DNA from: an uncultured Candidatus Saccharibacteria bacterium
GTDB lineage: Bacteria > Patescibacteriota > Minisyncoccia > UBA6257 > 1-14-0-10-44-23
Reading direction: 5' to 3'
NCBI GenBank assembly: GCA_964394435.1
Contig: CAYMXN010000002.1
Location: forward strand, 14,196 to 78,195
DNA length: 64,000 nt
The position numbers were made by a program, and so were the translations under genes. Below the pieces are notes generated by a model. It had not been told where the DNA came from. It saw nothing but the letters and a program-made list of their open reading frames with translations, and did no database searches. Of the stretch, positions 1 to 40,147 are shown one piece after another (position 1 is the first letter of the stretch; the number at the start of each line of letters is the position of its first letter).

Positions 1-303
1 CGAACTACCCGCTAACGCCCACCGCGGTGGCGGGCGTCTTCGAAGAGAGTTCCTCCCCCCAGACGCAAGTGCCACATCCCGCAACCTACCTTCAGGCAGA
101 GCTGGCACAGGGGCATGAACACCTCCTCGATCGTAGTCAGGGCGACCCCGCCCTCGGTTTCGGTCGTGAGGACCGTGCCATGACCACAGATTGGCCAAGA
201 CAGTCTGAACTTCTTCTATAACAAAAACTGCCCTACCAGCCTCAAGTACAGGCCTTGGACGGCTTTTTGGTTGGGGCGCTCCCTGCCCTCCTCTCCTTAT
301 CTC

Positions 304-795
304 TTAGTTACTCTCACGAAACGATTCTAAAACCTCCCGAACCGTGTCCGGCGTATTGAAATTAATCCACACCCGTTGCGCCTCGTCGAAGAACGTCTGA
401 CACTCGGCTACCCACTCCGCCCGACTCGCATCAGTTGCCTGCGCACTGCGAGTCCTACCGAGGATTATCATATCGTTACTACCAAGACGCTGCCTGACTC
501 CCATCAACCACCCGAACTGCGTGTTCGCGACAAAACTCGACTTTGCAGCCGATGCAGGCAAAAGATTATAAGCCTCAACCAGCTTGTCCCCTATTTTTCT
601 CATTTGCTGACCGAACTCAGTAGCATTTCTGACGGCCGCTTCAGGGTCCACCTTGCCGCCATTACGCCGCACAACCAACTCCGCCGAAGCCGCACACTCC
701 TCTAAAATCCGCTGAAATTGACCTAACTTCTCAAGAGCTTCCGGTGAGCCACCTCCCGCCCCCGCTGCGAAACTTTTTTCACCAGGCATCGCCAT
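304..795 (-). CDS. hypothetical protein, GC-rich orphan (163 aa)
   Basis: Intact ORF in a block (1-1600) whose GC is about 55 percent and whose codon third positions are GC-biased relative to the rest of the window. No motif recognised. Confidence 0.4.
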   Translation of the reverse strand: MAMPGEKSFAAGAGGGSPEALEKLGQFQRILEECAASAELVVRRNGGKVDPEAAVRNATEFGQQMRKIGDKLVEAYNLLPASAAKSSFVANTQFGWLMGVRQRLGSNDMIILGRTRSAQATDASRAEWVAECQTFFDEAQRVWINFNTPDTVREVLESFRESN

Positions 796-824
796 ATATG
801 TAGTGAATGTTTAATAGTAATATA

Positions 825-1082
825 TTAAATCAAGCCTATCACGAACAAATCCTGTTCGCAAACCCTTATTAAAAACTCCTTTGGTGGACCCCCTCTTATG
901 AGAAAACCCGCCGAAAAGTCGCGGAAGGTCTGGCCGAGGACGCAGAGCACCCGCCGTTTGAACTCTGCCCTGCTCGCGACCACCCCTGGAGTCACAAGAA
1001 CCTTCCCCCACTGGGAACCGTCCACGTGAGTCACGATGTGTCCGTGACCACACTCCGGAATCTTGATGCTGACCTTCTTGGG
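825..1082 (-). CDS. hypothetical small protein with CGHGH motif (start taken at MPKK, 86 aa)
   Basis: GGAGGG sits 4 nt before the ATG at 1082. A TTGACA-like box lies upstream at about 1150. GC-rich codons. Confidence 0.4.
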   Translation of the reverse strand, partial: PKKVSIKIPECGHGHIVTHVDGSQWGKVLVTPGVVASRAEFKRRVLCVLGQTFRDFSAGFLIRGGPPKEFLIRVCEQDLFVIGLI

Positions 1083-1260
1083 CATGACACCCTCCGCGAG
1101 CACGCAGACTATCTGCGCACCAACCCAAGCGCAATACATATTTTAAAAATAAAAGTCAATGTCAAATCTTTTGAAGTTATTTTTCCTATAGAAAATGAAA
1201 AGGCGCCAGATCTCCCAAAGGAAACCTGGCGCGATCGTAAAGCCAACTCGCTCTTCCCGA

Positions 1261-1670: not shown

Positions 1671-2018
1671 CTACTTCGCAAGCAGTGGCTCGAGCCACTG
1701 CCAAAATGGGCCGCGCATCTGAAACCCAAGCAACTTGCCGACTATACTGCCATCCTTCCAGACGAGGAAAAGCGGAACAGCCTTGGCTCCATAGCGACCA
1801 ATCAACTCGCCGTTCTTCTCCTCATCTACGTCTACCCGGACGAGCTTGAACCTATTCGGGTGAAGCTCGACGAGCTCGTCGATGACCTGCGTAGCGCGAT
1901 TGCATGGACCACACCAATCCGCGAAGAACTGCACCAGTACGGGGCCGGTCGCTTTGAGCACCTCGCGCTCAAAGCTGGCATCGCCCTTTACTGCGACAAA
2001 CGGAGCTTTTGCAGCCAC
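1671..2018 (-). CDS. trxA: thioredoxin
   Basis: Canonical WCGPC active site in FFADWCGPCNRATQVIDEL. Start reassigned to the GTG at 2018, which lies 6 nt after AAAGGAGGT. The longer listed ORF would run through the upstream terminator hairpin. Confidence 0.85.
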   Translation of the reverse strand: MAAKAPFVAVKGDASFEREVLKATGPVLVQFFADWCGPCNRATQVIDELVELHPNRFKLVRVDVDEEKNGELIGRYGAKAVPLFLVWKDGSIVGKLLGFQMRGPFWQWLEPLLAK

Positions 2019-2091
2019 AGGACCTCCTTTTTGCAGCCAGAGAACAATTGCAAGATGACCTACGCGCCACGATAGATTAGTTGAGCCAGCC

Positions 2092-2124
2092 CTAAAATGC
2101 AAATCCCGCCAGCTGGCGGGATTT
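2092..2124 (-). terminator. intrinsic terminator after rplK (hairpin AAATCCCGCC-AGCT-GGCGGGATTT plus T tract on minus strand)
   Basis: Perfect 10-bp inverted repeat at 2101-2124, followed on the minus strand by GCATTTT. Confidence 0.6.
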
Positions 2125-2174
2125 GTTTAGTACTATTTCTTAACTCTTCGCTGGACACTCAGAGTCTTCGAAGA

Positions 2175-2600
2175 TTACTTCTCGACCTCGATACCCATGT
2201 TGCGGGCGGTACCTTCGATGATGCGCATCGCTGCTTCATCGCTGTTGGCGTTGAGATCTGCCTTTTTCTGTTCGGCGATTTTCTTAACGTCAGCCTTGGT
2301 TACCTTTCCGACTTTCGTCGTGAGCGGGTTTCCACTTCCCTTTTCGATACCGGCTGCTTTCTTTAACAGCGCAGAAGCTGGAGGAGTCTTGAGGATGAAA
2401 TCAAACGTGCGGTCTTCGTAGATAGTGATAACGGCTGGGATTGTGTCACCGGCCATCGTCTTAGTTGCCTCGTTAAATTTCTTACAAAAATCCATCAGGT
2501 TGATACCATGAGGACCGAGAGCGGTTCCGATTGGAGGCGCTGGGTTAGCAGCTGCTCCCTGAATCTGGAGCTTGACGACTGATTTTACTGGTTTAGCCAT
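2175..2600 (-). CDS. rplK: 50S ribosomal protein L11
   Basis: 141 aa. [42 protein letters not shown] matches L11 along its length. Confidence 0.95.
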
Positions 2601-35878: not shown

Positions 35879-36562
35879 CTACCCCTTGCCCCCTGGAGGA
35901 GGCGCGAAGGCGGCGATCGGAGTCCAGCCGAGCAACTTGTCACCTGGCTTGGACCCCTCCGGACCCTGGATCATCGGGAGCGGATCGGTCCGCTGCCCGA
36001 AGTTGAGCTCGAAGCCCGTCGCCAGACGCGAGATGAGCACGTACTCCTTCTCCTGCCCCACCGGAGCCGTGGGCAGGACCGTCGCCCCGTTGAGGACCCA
36101 GGCGCGGCGCTTGTCGCACGTGCCGACGTTGCCGCAGACCTTGACCCAGCCCGCCTCGCCGACCTGCAGCGTCGCCACCGTGAGGTGGTAGAACTGCGAG
36201 GGAACGACGGCCGGGACCGGCTTGGACGACTCGCTGGGCGACTTCATCGCCGGCACCGTCGGGCAGTCCATGTCCGACTGCGGGAGACCCGGTACGGTCG
36301 GAGCCATGAGCCACTCGTTGAAGCCCGAGGCCTCCTTGGAGTTCGGCGAGGACGTGAACGTCTTCACCGCCTGCTTCGTCTCCTTGTCGTCGCCGCTGTT
36401 CCAGCAGAGGCCGACGATGATGACGATGATCAGGACGATGATACCCCCGATCGCCACGAGGCGACCGCGGGTGATCCCCCCGGGCACCTCGTGCGGGACG
36501 GGGTCGCCGCCGGACGAAGCCGGGGCGTGGGGGTCGTGGGAATCGTGGGAATCGGCGGACAC
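35879..36562 (-). CDS. single-pass membrane protein, very GC-rich cassette E (about 66 percent GC)
   Basis: His/Asp-rich cytoplasmic N-terminus, TM helix LVAIGGIIVLIIVIIVGLCW, Pro/Cys-containing ectodomain. AGGAGG 5 nt before a GTG. Strong promoter immediately upstream. Confidence 0.55.
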   Translation of the reverse strand: MSADSHDSHDPHAPASSGGDPVPHEVPGGITRGRLVAIGGIIVLIIVIIVGLCWNSGDDKETKQAVKTFTSSPNSKEASGFNEWLMAPTVPGLPQSDMDCPTVPAMKSPSESSKPVPAVVPSQFYHLTVATLQVGEAGWVKVCGNVGTCDKRRAWVLNGATVLPTAPVGQEKEYVLISRLATGFELNFGQRTDPLPMIQGPEGSKPGDKLLGWTPIAAFAPPPGGKG

Positions 36563-36600
36563 AGACACCTCCTTATTGGACTAGAGACATAGCCGTTTTG

Positions 36601-36980: not shown

Positions 36981-37889
36981 CTAGACTTTGAGGTAGCGCC
37001 TGATAGCGATCCAACTACTGATAATACCGAGACCACAGCCGGCTAAGATGAGATATCCAAACAATTGAAATAGATTTGAGTAGAAATACACTTCGATATT
37101 AACCTCGGGTATAACTGCAGCAAAATATGGCGAGGCGAAGTTGATTGCCGGAGCGGCGATAAGCATCGTAAAGACGGCTCCAAATACTCCGTACAAGATT
37201 CCGTTTACAATATATGGCCCTTTGATAAAGGTGTTAGACCCTCCGACTAAACGCATAATCGCGATCTCTTCTCGATTGCTGTAAATCGCCAGACGAATCG
37301 TGTTGAATGCGACAAGACAAGCGGCGATGGCGATAAATACAGCGAGAACAAATCCAACTTTATTGACCGTATCAATAATCTTGTTGAGGCGCTCGATCGC
37401 TTTTTGGTTTTGGGCGTAGGTAATTTTCTCGACAATTGATTTAAAGTTGTCGTTTTCTAAATATGAGGCGATGATTGGATAATCCTTTGTGTCGTTCGCT
37501 TTAATGTTTACCGAGGCACGCAACGGATTAGCACTTAACTCCTGAAGCGCCTGACTGATGGTCGGGTCTTCTTTGTGGTTCTCTTTAAAAATTTCAAGCG
37601 CTTTGTCGCGCGAGATATACTCGACGCTCTTTACCTCCGGGAGTTGCTCGAGTGCTTTTTCGATTTTCAAAATATCATCTTCTGGAGCGGCAACTTTGAA
37701 ATACACGGCGATGTCTATTTTGTCGCGTAATGAGTCGGTAGCGGTCTTAGTTAACACATCAAACATCGTAAGTCCGTTGAATAAGAGTAGCGCCAATACC
37801 ATAACCACGATGGTCGCGATTGAAAGTGAGCTGTTACGCCAAAAGCTCTGGAAGCCGTATTTAATCATTCGTAATAGTCCGGTAAGCAT
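36981..37889 (-). CDS. ftsX: cell division permease FtsX
   Basis: 4-TM FtsX topology with a large first periplasmic loop. Follows ftsE. Confidence 0.88.
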   Translation of the reverse strand: MLTGLLRMIKYGFQSFWRNSSLSIATIVVMVLALLLFNGLTMFDVLTKTATDSLRDKIDIAVYFKVAAPEDDILKIEKALEQLPEVKSVEYISRDKALEIFKENHKEDPTISQALQELSANPLRASVNIKANDTKDYPIIASYLENDNFKSIVEKITYAQNQKAIERLNKIIDTVNKVGFVLAVFIAIAACLVAFNTIRLAIYSNREEIAIMRLVGGSNTFIKGPYIVNGILYGVFGAVFTMLIAAPAINFASPYFAAVIPEVNIEVYFYSNLFQLFGYLILAGCGLGIISSWIAIRRYLKV

Positions 37890-37893
37890 ATGA

Positions 37894-38577
37894 TTACATT
37901 ATGACGTATTTACCGTTTGCCTCATCTCGTACGATGCGCCCATCAACGAGGGTAATAACGCGCTTATTTAACTTATTAACCACATCTTTGTTATGGCTCG
38001 CTAAAATAATCGTCGTGCCAAGCTCGTTAATGCGCTGAAGCAACTTAATAATTTCATCGGTATTTAAATCATCGAGGTTTCCGGTCGGCTCGTCAGCGAC
38101 GATGACTGATGGGTGGTGGATCATAGCTCTTGCGATTGCGACGCGTTGCTTTTCACCGCCAGACAGTTCGTGTGGAAAGTTGTGATGTTTGTCGGAAAGA
38201 CCGACGAGGTCGAGCACCTGCGGTACAAACTCTTCGATCTCATCTTGAGCGCGTCCCCCTACTTCGAGCGCGAATGCAACGTTTTCATACGCAGTTTTTT
38301 TCGGCAATAATTTAAAGTCTTGGAATACGATGCCGATTTGTCGGCGCAGTCGTGGAAGCTCATTATTTTTAAGCTTATTCACTTCTTTGTCTTCAATAAC
38401 AATCCGCCCTTTGCTTGGGCGGTCTTCGCCGATCATTAGCTTAATAAGCGTGCTCTTACCCGCTCCGGACTTACCTACCAGCGACACAAACTCACCCGGC
38501 TTTATCTTAAAGCTAATATCTTCGACACCAACAGACTTATTACTGTAGATTTTAGAAACGCCAAAAAATTCAATCAT
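37894..38577 (-). CDS. ftsE: cell division ABC ATPase FtsE
   Basis: Walker A GKSGAGKST, signature LSGGEKQRVAIARA, Walker B IVADEPTGNLD. Start set at MIEFFG. Confidence 0.92.
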   Translation of the reverse strand: MIEFFGVSKIYSNKSVGVEDISFKIKPGEFVSLVGKSGAGKSTLIKLMIGEDRPSKGRIVIEDKEVNKLKNNELPRLRRQIGIVFQDFKLLPKKTAYENVAFALEVGGRAQDEIEEFVPQVLDLVGLSDKHHNFPHELSGGEKQRVAIARAMIHHPSVIVADEPTGNLDDLNTDEIIKLLQRINELGTTIILASHNKDVVNKLNKRVITLVDGRIVRDEANGKYVIM

Positions 38578-38647
38578 AGTAGGTGCGCTTTTTCTGACTA
38601 CAACGCTCACTTAGCGCATACCGTATAGTATAGCAAATTTTCACCTC

Positions 38648-39391
38648 TTACGGCAGTTGCAACTCGGCCTCGATAAACTTATCAAGATCACCCTTGAGTA
38701 CGTTTTCAACTTGCGTTGTTTCTGCCTTAGTGCGGTGGTCCTTAACCATCTTGTATGGGTTGAGCACGTACGAGCGAATCTGGCTCCCCCACTCCGGCTT
38801 GGCGTGGACGCGCAAATCCGACATCTCCTGTTTTTGATGCACCTCCATCAAATGAATCAATTTTGATTTTAACAATGCGACCGCCTTTTCTTTGTTTTGC
38901 GCCTGGCCGCGCTCGGCCTGACTTTCGGTCGCAATACCGGTCGGAATATGTACGACTCGCACCGCGGTCTCGCGCTTGTTCACATTTTGTCCGCCCGGAC
39001 CCGATGAGCGCGTAGTCTCAAATCGCAAGTCAGCATCTGGAATACGAAACTTCATATGTTCAACAGCCGGCAAAATTGGAACAACCTCAACGAGCGCGAA
39101 GCTCGTATGGCGAGCTTTTTTTGAATCAAATGGACTGATACGTACGAGACGATGTACGCCTGATTCTTTTCTAAGCGTTCCATACGCAAAATCACCCTTA
39201 ATCTCAATCGCACGATCAGTAATAAGCGAAACTTTAAATCCTCGCTTACCGCAGTACTTGATATACATCTCGACAAGCATATTTGCCCAATCTTTAGCAT
39301 CATCGCCGCCGACGCCAGGATAGACTGAAAGATGAGCCGAACCTTTGTCATATTTGCCGGTAAGAGGTTTTAACGGAAGTGTTGTTTCCAT
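38648..39391 (-). CDS. prfB: peptide chain release factor 2 (domains 2-4 only, 247 aa)
   Basis: SPF tripeptide (RISPFDS) and GGQ (SSGPGGQNVNK). No N-terminal domain and no CUU-UGA frameshift site upstream. Confidence 0.78.
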   Translation of the reverse strand: METTLPLKPLTGKYDKGSAHLSVYPGVGGDDAKDWANMLVEMYIKYCGKRGFKVSLITDRAIEIKGDFAYGTLRKESGVHRLVRISPFDSKKARHTSFALVEVVPILPAVEHMKFRIPDADLRFETTRSSGPGGQNVNKRETAVRVVHIPTGIATESQAERGQAQNKEKAVALLKSKLIHLMEVHQKQEMSDLRVHAKPEWGSQIRSYVLNPYKMVKDHRTKAETTQVENVLKGDLDKFIEAELQLP

Positions 39392-39415
39392 GATTTGTTT
39401 ACTGTAACAGACTTA

Positions 39416-39913
39416 TTAAACTATCTCCATCTCATCTTTATGCCTCGCTTTTATCAGCCCGCGCCCTTCTTTTGCCCGCTTACTTAAAACCCGATTTCCT
39501 CTTCCCCTCCCTCTATTCAAACCAGCATACGTTGCAGTAAGCGAATCGCAATTTGGACAGATCAACCGTAAATTCCTTTCGCTATTATTACGCCAATTCC
39601 CATCAATATGATCAGCTACTAATGGAGAGTATCCTATCTTCGTGTTAATTTTTGCCCATCCACAGAGACAGCATTTATCTTCAAATTTCCGCCTTAAATA
39701 TCTCTTGATGTATCCCGATACAATACCAAGACCTTGTAGCCCGCTCACCTCTCCCGCCTGCCACTTTTTTATATACAGTTGATACTGATATTCAATCTGG
39801 CAAGCATTACTACAATACTTGTATTGAGAACGTGCAGTTTGGCTACCGCATAAGAGACAAGCGGCTCTCGGCTTTTTAATTTGAGGCATACTAATATACT
39901 TCAATATTATCAA
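39416..39913 (-). CDS. HNH endonuclease
   Basis: CxxC...HIDGNWRNNSERNLRLICPNCDS is the HNH/His-Me finger with a zinc-binding Cys pair. Probable start at MPQIKK. Confidence 0.8.
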   Translation of the reverse strand: MIILKYISMPQIKKPRAACLLCGSQTARSQYKYCSNACQIEYQYQLYIKKWQAGEVSGLQGLGIVSGYIKRYLRRKFEDKCCLCGWAKINTKIGYSPLVADHIDGNWRNNSERNLRLICPNCDSLTATYAGLNRGRGRGNRVLSKRAKEGRGLIKARHKDEMEIV

Positions 39914-39957
39914 AAAACAACCAGTTTTGAAATATAGACTGGTCGCATTTTATCTTG

Positions 39958-40030
39958 AGCCACCTCGCGGATTTGCACCGCGGACCTTCTCGTTACGAGT
40001 GAGATGCTCTACTATCTGAGCTAAGGTGGC
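39958..40030 (-). tRNA. tRNA-Thr (anticodon CGU), probable
   Basis: Reverse-complement folds as acceptor GCCACCT/AGGTGGC, D arm GCTC..GAGC, anticodon loop CTCGTAA, T arm CGCGG-TGCAAAT-CCGCG. One A-C mismatch at 31-39 lowers confidence. Confidence 0.6.
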
Positions 40031-40073
40031 AGTTAGTGCCTACTATACCGATTTTAGAAAGTAATTTCAATGC

Positions 40074-40147
40074 TGGAGCGGGTAACGAGAATCGGACTCG
40101 TGTCTCAACCTTGGGAAGGTCGCGTTCTACCACTGAACCATACCCGC
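40074..40147 (-). tRNA. tRNA-Gly (anticodon CCC)
   Basis: Reverse-complement GCGGGTA..TACCCGC acceptor, D arm GTTC-AGTGGTA-GAAC, anticodon loop TTCCCAA, T arm ACGAG-TCCGATT-CTCGT, encoded CCA. Confidence 0.8.

Follow-up and report, generated by a model that had tools for sequence, protein, structure and literature searches.

The window, by which we mean the whole 64-kb stretch of DNA analysed here, encodes a release factor 2 (RF2) that has no domain 1. We consider it very probable that this gene is an intact, housekeeping prfB, and that a derived clade of Paceibacteria/Parcubacteria has lost both domain 1 and the programmed frameshift, leaving a minimal RF2 without RF3 coupling. Domain 1 is where a release factor contacts the L11/L7-L12 stalk and RF3, and to our knowledge nearly every bacterial RF1 and RF2 described so far has it. 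With much less assurance, we also lean slightly towards a broader claim, namely that the only RF2 in a large and deep clade of Paceibacteria is a domain-1-less one, which terminates translation at all UGA and UAA codons.

The short prfB (38648..39391, minus strand) codes for a 247-aa protein composed of domains 2, 3 and 4 only. Its reading frame can be extended 5' of the ATG by at most 7 codons before it is closed. In terms of Pfam domains, RF-1, which contains the GGQ, is complete, while PCRF is matched only at profile positions 94-194 of 194. The NCBIfam prfB model, TIGR00020, aligns at profile positions 109-352 of 353 with 315 bits, below its cutoff of 370, and positions 1-108 of the profile are unmatched. 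A similar picture is given by the PDB comparison, where query residues 10-245 correspond to residues 119-362 of E. coli RF2 and to residues 118-362 of B. subtilis RF2. The stop-codon recognition motif SPF (residues 86-88; 39128..39136, minus strand) and the catalytic motif GGQ (residues 133-135; 38987..38995, minus strand) were both read directly from the sequence. The earlier note on this DNA had described an ORF that begins about 110 residues into a canonical RF2 and retains both motifs, and these results agree with it on the two points.

Conservation is high in the functional regions. In an alignment of 46 sequences (A1), S86, P87, H95, T96, G133, G134 and Q135 are invariant, together with many other positions, and F88 is conserved at 90% or more. 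RHTSF and other motifs are also invariant across these sequences. The window protein retains the decoding module of domains 2 and 4 (SPF, the GG-D-A-x-DW helix tip and RHTSF) as well as the GGQ loop of domain 3. Its AlphaFold model has a mean pLDDT of 84.5, with a TM-score, normalised to the query, of 0.82 against free E. coli RF2 (1GQE), and a TM-score of 0.78 against T. thermophilus RF2 (2IHR).

Some local changes were also observed. The strand-loop of domain 2 near residues 57-61 is approximately 10 residues shorter than in the RF2 of B. subtilis and E. coli, and the same shortening is found in full-length relatives, such as P0121. At the GGTE helix tip, the conserved Glu is replaced by Asp (D31), which is nearly invariant across the group.

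As for the identity of the protein among related factors, the profile scores are 315 bits for prfB, 178 for prfA, 88 for prfH and 47 for ArfB. The top PDB matches are RF2 chains, with PrfH chains reaching only 64 bits. Judged by sequence, the window protein is an RF2 and not another paralogue. It has the PCRF and RF-1 domains, prfB as its best profile, SPF and GGQ, and positional orthology with prfB; it stays under the TIGR00020 cutoff, which needs the N-terminal helical domain 1, and it has no +1 frameshift site. This frameshift (CUU UGA C after a Shine-Dalgarno-like element) is typical of prfB, but not universal. Since the curated prfB model falls below its cutoff on these proteins, genomes of the clade can be wrongly scored as RF2-less. 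Such a false absence matters wherever the reassignment of a stop codon is inferred from a missing release factor.

The absence of the N-terminal part extends to the surrounding DNA. Within 450 nt upstream of prfB, CTTTGA, CTTTAG and CTTTAA are absent in the required frame, and no programmed +1 frameshift site was found in the window or in any locus with the short form. The gene immediately upstream encodes an HNH-like protein; its stop codon is a TAA at 39416-39418, and the 24-nt spacer between this stop and the prfB ATG (39392..39415, minus strand) has no Shine-Dalgarno-like run and no CUU-UGA. A domain-1 profile (HMM), constructed from 63 full-length relatives, found nothing in all six frames of the 64-kb window, with a best E-value of 0.33, and nothing in the short-form loci (approximately 4-9 kb each). 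Two further statements of the earlier note are thus borne out, that the upstream region has no CUU-UGA frameshift context, and that the HNH stop lies directly upstream, leaving no room for domain 1.

These searches also bear on a split prfB, in which domain 1 would be supplied in trans by a separate small gene. A split is conceivable, as domain 1 is a loosely attached helical bundle. However, the profile was empty in both the window and the short-form loci, and no small gene is conserved beside the short prfB across genomes, which makes this arrangement very unlikely.

It had also been suggested that a sequencing or assembly error conceals a full-length, frameshifted prfB. Gene callers do often mis-annotate prfB owing to its natural frameshift, which speaks for such an error. 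Against it, four contigs, each assembled from a different sequencing run, agree at 100% over the segment 38001-40200 (2.2 kb), and this identity over four independent assemblies excludes an artefact. Furthermore, the six frames of the window hold no domain-1 coding potential, a tRNA gene and an HNH gene that is intact and conserved occupy the upstream space, and the same architecture is found in more than 120 relatives. We therefore give a hidden full-length gene next to no probability. The short gene does not appear to be decaying either. Compared with its closest relative, L008, prfB has a dN of 0.018 and a dS of 0.98, and the resulting dN/dS of 0.019 indicates that it is not a pseudogene. 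The prfB of the window is intact and under strong purifying selection.

We observed the short form throughout the nearest relatives. The 120 nearest protein clusters, with 67-98% identity, range from 226 to 306 aa, being mostly of 240-255 aa, and none of the 120 matches the domain-1 profile; the matches listed are those closest to the query. Where names are given, these clusters belong to Candidatus Harrisonbacteria, Pacebacteria, Parcubacteria or Patescibacteria. At a library clustering threshold of 50% identity, the representatives closest to the query share 61% identity with it and are full-length RF2 proteins, such as P0121 (347 aa), on which Pfam PCRF covers positions 2-194.

In terms of genomic loci, the set comprises the best 80 genome matches, taken from species-representative genomes, plus 8 earlier loci and the window. 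Three forms of prfB are present. The first, without domain 1, occurs in 27 loci, which are all those with at least 65% identity plus L025, L027, L028 and L032 (Jorgensenbacteria). The second has a full domain 1 and is found in 16 loci. Among these, 14 have the classical +1 frameshift site, in which ...GGAGGAC..GT CTT TGA C follows an ORF0 of approximately 22 codons and the main frame is open for approximately 83 further codons; the other two, L035 and L029, have a full-length prfB without frameshift. The third form is partial and was found in approximately 42-46 loci (Nomurabacteria, Paceibacterota and others), the count of 46 including four loci cut by a contig end. It has an N-terminal stub of approximately 45 residues, a DFW motif and no frameshift, with the Pfam PCRF match starting only at profile position 95. 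This form, in which the stub is helical, is distributed among L030-L088, with examples in L057:2866-3744, L038:2857-3741 and L060:2857-3744. Taken together, the full, stub and domain-1-less forms look like a reduction series for domain 1.

A simple neighbour-joining tree of the shared region, built without support values, places the frameshift forms as basal and paraphyletic, and the stub form as a separate clade. The domain-1-less genes occupy one derived part of this tree, where they make up two adjacent sub-groups and are nested among full-length genes. By this topology, the domain-1-less prfB is a derived state, found in a group near Candidatus Harrisonbacteria and Jorgensenbacteria. Of the two origins offered in the earlier note, a lineage-specific minimal RF2 gains support: the short form is seen in 120 of 120 nearest clusters and in 27 of 27 loci of the derived group, and the upstream neighbours differ between these loci. 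The same note had allowed that all relatives might be short, which would make the form merely lineage-typical. This holds within one clade, but deeper relatives keep domain 1 and the frameshift.

The upstream neighbourhood of prfB consists of the HNH gene and two tRNA genes. The HNH gene (39416..39913, minus strand) encodes a protein of 165 aa that combines a zinc ribbon with an HNH-like region, and for which Pfam gives only a weak match to HNH_3 (E=0.0035). It is followed, further upstream, by tRNA-Thr(CGU) (39957..40030, minus strand), a gene that lies directly upstream of prfB in most relatives, and by tRNA-Gly(CCC) (40074..40147, minus strand), which belongs to the conserved neighbourhood. 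Between the two tRNA genes there is a promoter-like site, TTGAAA-17-TATAGT (40042..40070, minus strand), a consensus match only, whose position suggests a candidate promoter for a tRNA-Thr–HNH–prfB–ftsEX transcript. An Rfam scan of the window returned four tRNAs and nothing else.

The other origin offered in the earlier note was that an HNH endonuclease gene had been inserted into a full-length prfB, cutting it short. The HNH stop codon, only 24 nt upstream of the prfB ATG, fits such an event, as does the variable position of the HNH gene, which is missing from this spot in L008. That same locus is, at the same time, strong evidence against it. In L008, which has 98% amino-acid and 86% nucleotide identity to the window gene, the same short prfB lies 6 nt after tRNA-Thr(CGU), without any HNH gene. 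In other short-form loci, the upstream neighbours of prfB are unrelated, being an opposite-strand NUDIX gene, a bAvd/DGR reverse transcriptase or an unknown gene, with gaps of 17-83 nt. Moreover, no remnant of domain 1 was found in any frame.

HNH homologues, with 62-72% identity, were found beside prfB of every architecture. They are present in L018 and L004, which have no domain 1, in L078, which has the full domain 1 and the frameshift, and in L057, L049 and L086, which are partial (coordinates L004:427-876, L018:2449-2925, L078:2123-2578 and L057:2331-2777). The homologue in L004 is 65% identical to that of the window. In those loci the HNH gene is just upstream of tRNA-Thr, which in most of them adjoins prfB. 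The window is peculiar in having the HNH gene on the prfB side of tRNA-Thr, opposite to the usual position. As the homologues accompany all three architectures, the HNH gene is an old neighbour of prfB. The suggested check, that the HNH gene should be absent where prfB is full-length, gave the opposite result, since a homologue sits beside the full-length frameshift prfB of L078. A recent mobile insertion as the cause of the truncation is ruled out by L008, short without HNH, and by L078, full-length with HNH, and we see hardly any chance, at the level of the sequencing error above, that this gene truncated prfB.

In terms of the HNH family itself, proteins of 150-165 aa occur across deeply diverged Paceibacteria, always adjoining tRNA-Thr(CGU) and prfB. 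An identity of 62-72% is apparently unusually high conservation for a selfish homing endonuclease.

The spacing between tRNA-Thr(CGU) and prfB is short in many relatives, where 0-15 nt separate the end of the tRNA from the start codon of prfB, in both full-length and short forms. This abutting arrangement is found in L008:2448-2530 and also in L018, L009, L014 and L025. After 3' processing of the tRNA, the prfB mRNA of such relatives would be nearly leaderless.

Other elements were observed in the same region. Between tRNA-Gly and tRNA-Thr, L008 carries an insertion of 2.3 kb compared to the window (L008:56-2400). It contains a reverse-transcriptase-like ORF (107-1246, minus strand) with a YTDDLTF motif and approximately 1.1 kb of GC-rich non-coding sequence, and is possibly a retron-like element or a group II intron. 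In L004:2498-3981 and L005:39-1522, the short prfB is preceded, at a distance of 19 nt, by bAvd and an RVT_1 reverse transcriptase, which together are characteristic of a diversity-generating retroelement (DGR).

Downstream of prfB, the window has ftsE, an ABC ATPase (37894..38610, minus strand), directly after the gene, followed by ftsX (36981..37889, minus strand). This order is widely shared. We found ftsE directly after prfB in 24 of the 27 domain-1-less loci, 12 of the 16 full-length loci and 36 of the 46 partial loci, with the exceptions being mostly short overlaps or single inserted genes. On the other side, each of the three forms has loci with tRNA-Thr(CGU) upstream of prfB, immediately next to it in most of those checked. 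The order tRNA-Thr–prfB–ftsE–ftsX is thus common to the three forms, which identifies the short gene as the housekeeping prfB, the positional orthologue of the full-length one.

This gene order bears on the possibility that the short protein is an accessory release or rescue factor, PrfH-like or a partner of ArfA/BrfA, with a full-length RF2 encoded elsewhere. Such a role has precedent, as natural domain-1-less RF homologues (PrfH) are rescue factors, and the NCBI annotation pipeline calls many of the nearest clusters, whose sequences are public, only "peptide chain release factor-like protein". It is also compatible with the span of our search for release factors, which covered 64 kb plus approximately 20 kb of flanks of the genome, and the locus regions of the relatives. 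However, the short gene occupies the same tRNA-Thr–prfB–ftsE–ftsX slot as the full-length prfB of sister lineages and is nested among those genes in the tree. It keeps SPF, scores 315 bits with the prfB model against 88 with prfH, and has no rtcB nearby. No second release-factor gene was found in the 64-kb window, in 88 related loci or in the approximately 20 kb of extra flanks from other assemblies; within the window, a tblastn search with E. coli RF2 was equally empty, also for a domain 1 in another frame or elsewhere. Among the best 80 genome matches, no short-form genome contributed a second locus. In addition, these genomes are reduced, which makes a redundant copy of RF2 less likely. We regard the accessory role as unlikely, though it deserves more weight than a split gene, and favour the reading of the short gene as the housekeeping prfB.

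Elsewhere in the window, a 229-aa ORF lies just downstream of ftsX (35879-36568, minus strand), in a segment with approximately 61% GC compared to a window mean of approximately 48%. Several frames of this segment hold long ORFs. The 229-aa product contains much proline, glycine and histidine and a single hydrophobic segment; the ORF could represent foreign DNA, or else a membrane protein of odd composition. At 1671-2600 (minus strand), the gene for ribosomal protein L11 (2175-2600, with both domains present) has a thioredoxin gene (1671-2102) after it, where L1 would be usual. Positions 1-1600 of the window are GC-richer and have no convincing ORFs.

As for stop-codon usage, counts rest on crude ORF calls of at least 100 aa. 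By these calls, TGA ends 23 of 144 ORFs (16%) in the domain-1-less loci, compared to 17% in full-length and 17% in partial loci. With approximately 16% of short-form ORFs ending in UGA, a factor that reads this codon is still needed. We considered a lower use of UGA in the short-form clade and rejected it on the same crude calls, as its 16% is close to the 17% of each of the other two forms. Within the window, 4 of 68-74 crude ORFs stop at TGA, compared to approximately 16-17% in related loci, which is a small sample. This rarity could be a hint of a weaker RF2.

We propose the following course of events. Within the derived clade, prfB would have lost roughly 105 codons of domain 1 and, with them, the ancestral +1 frameshift by which RF2 regulates its own synthesis. 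Expression of the gene would no longer be tuned by RF2-sensitive frameshifting, and prfB is probably co-transcribed from the tRNA-Thr region with HNH, ftsE and ftsX. At UGA and UAA, the protein would bind to the A site of the ribosome and release the peptide like a canonical RF2, a prediction based on the conserved motifs and on the 16% of crude ORFs that end in TGA in the loci of the clade. With no domain-1 contacts to the L11/L7-L12 stalk and no RF3-stimulated recycling, it would then leave the ribosome by spontaneous dissociation. E. coli with a truncated RF2 reportedly grew poorly, so full function without compensation is not guaranteed.

The expected loss of RF3 and stalk contacts is drawn by analogy from published E. 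coli work. According to PMC1586002, which summarises Mora et al. 2003, E. coli RF1 and RF2 from which domain 1 had been deleted kept their codon specificity and peptide release, but no longer stimulated nucleotide exchange on RF3. The same source describes prfC as dispensable, with RF3 orthologues not found in small genomes (PMC1586002).

In the openly searchable literature, we found no description of a natural housekeeping RF2 without domain 1, Patescibacteria included. A domain-1-less RF2 in Patescibacteria is not described in the 2019 survey of release-factor evolution (PMC6514570) or in the 2025 survey of prfB frameshifting (PMC12421855), and a domain-1-less RF2 is likewise not described in papers on ribosome features and ribosome biogenesis of the candidate phyla radiation (CPR).

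If the broader claim is true, the clade is a natural experiment in which both the domain that interacts with the stalk and RF3, and the widespread autoregulation of prfB, are dispensable in vivo. These losses may have co-evolved with the disappearance of RF3 and with the reduced CPR ribosomes. Furthermore, if these bacteria rely on the short RF2, it would offer a natural minimal factor for studies of the structure and kinetics of RF3-independent termination. The frameshift autoregulation of prfB would have been lost clade-wide, and translation termination would join the pared-down translation components of the CPR.

Finally, we compared the window protein with known systems. It shares with canonical RF2 (TIGR00020; 1GQE, 2IHR) the fold, domains 2, 3 and 4 at approximately 45% identity, and the SPF, GGQ and RHTSF motifs. 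It differs in the absence of the whole of domain 1 (about 108 residues) and of the +1 frameshift autoregulation and, compared to B. subtilis RF2, in the deletion of approximately 10 residues in domain 2. It has the same architecture as the engineered E. coli RF1 and RF2 with a truncated N-terminus (Mora et al. 2003, summarised in PMC1586002), which also consist of domains 2-4 only. Those are laboratory constructs, whereas the window protein is natural, conserved in its clade and under purifying selection.

The known natural RF homologues without domain 1, PrfH and ArfB, are rescue factors in which the decoding elements are altered or absent. PrfH/RFH (TIGR03072) is, like the window protein, a natural class-I RF homologue with GGQ and a decoding-type domain. 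However, the decoding residues of PrfH are altered and its gene always comes with rtcB, while the window protein keeps SPF and scores 88 bits against the TIGR03072 cutoff of 167. The neighbours of the window gene are HNH, tRNA-Thr, ftsE and ftsX, and no rtcB was found in the window region or in the loci of the relatives. ArfB/ICT1 is also a GGQ peptidyl-tRNA hydrolase without domain 1. The match to ArfB reaches 47 bits against a cutoff of 100, and is confined to 33 residues around the GGQ. In contrast to ArfB, which has no codon-recognition domain and ends in a C-terminal basic tail, the window protein has a decoding domain.
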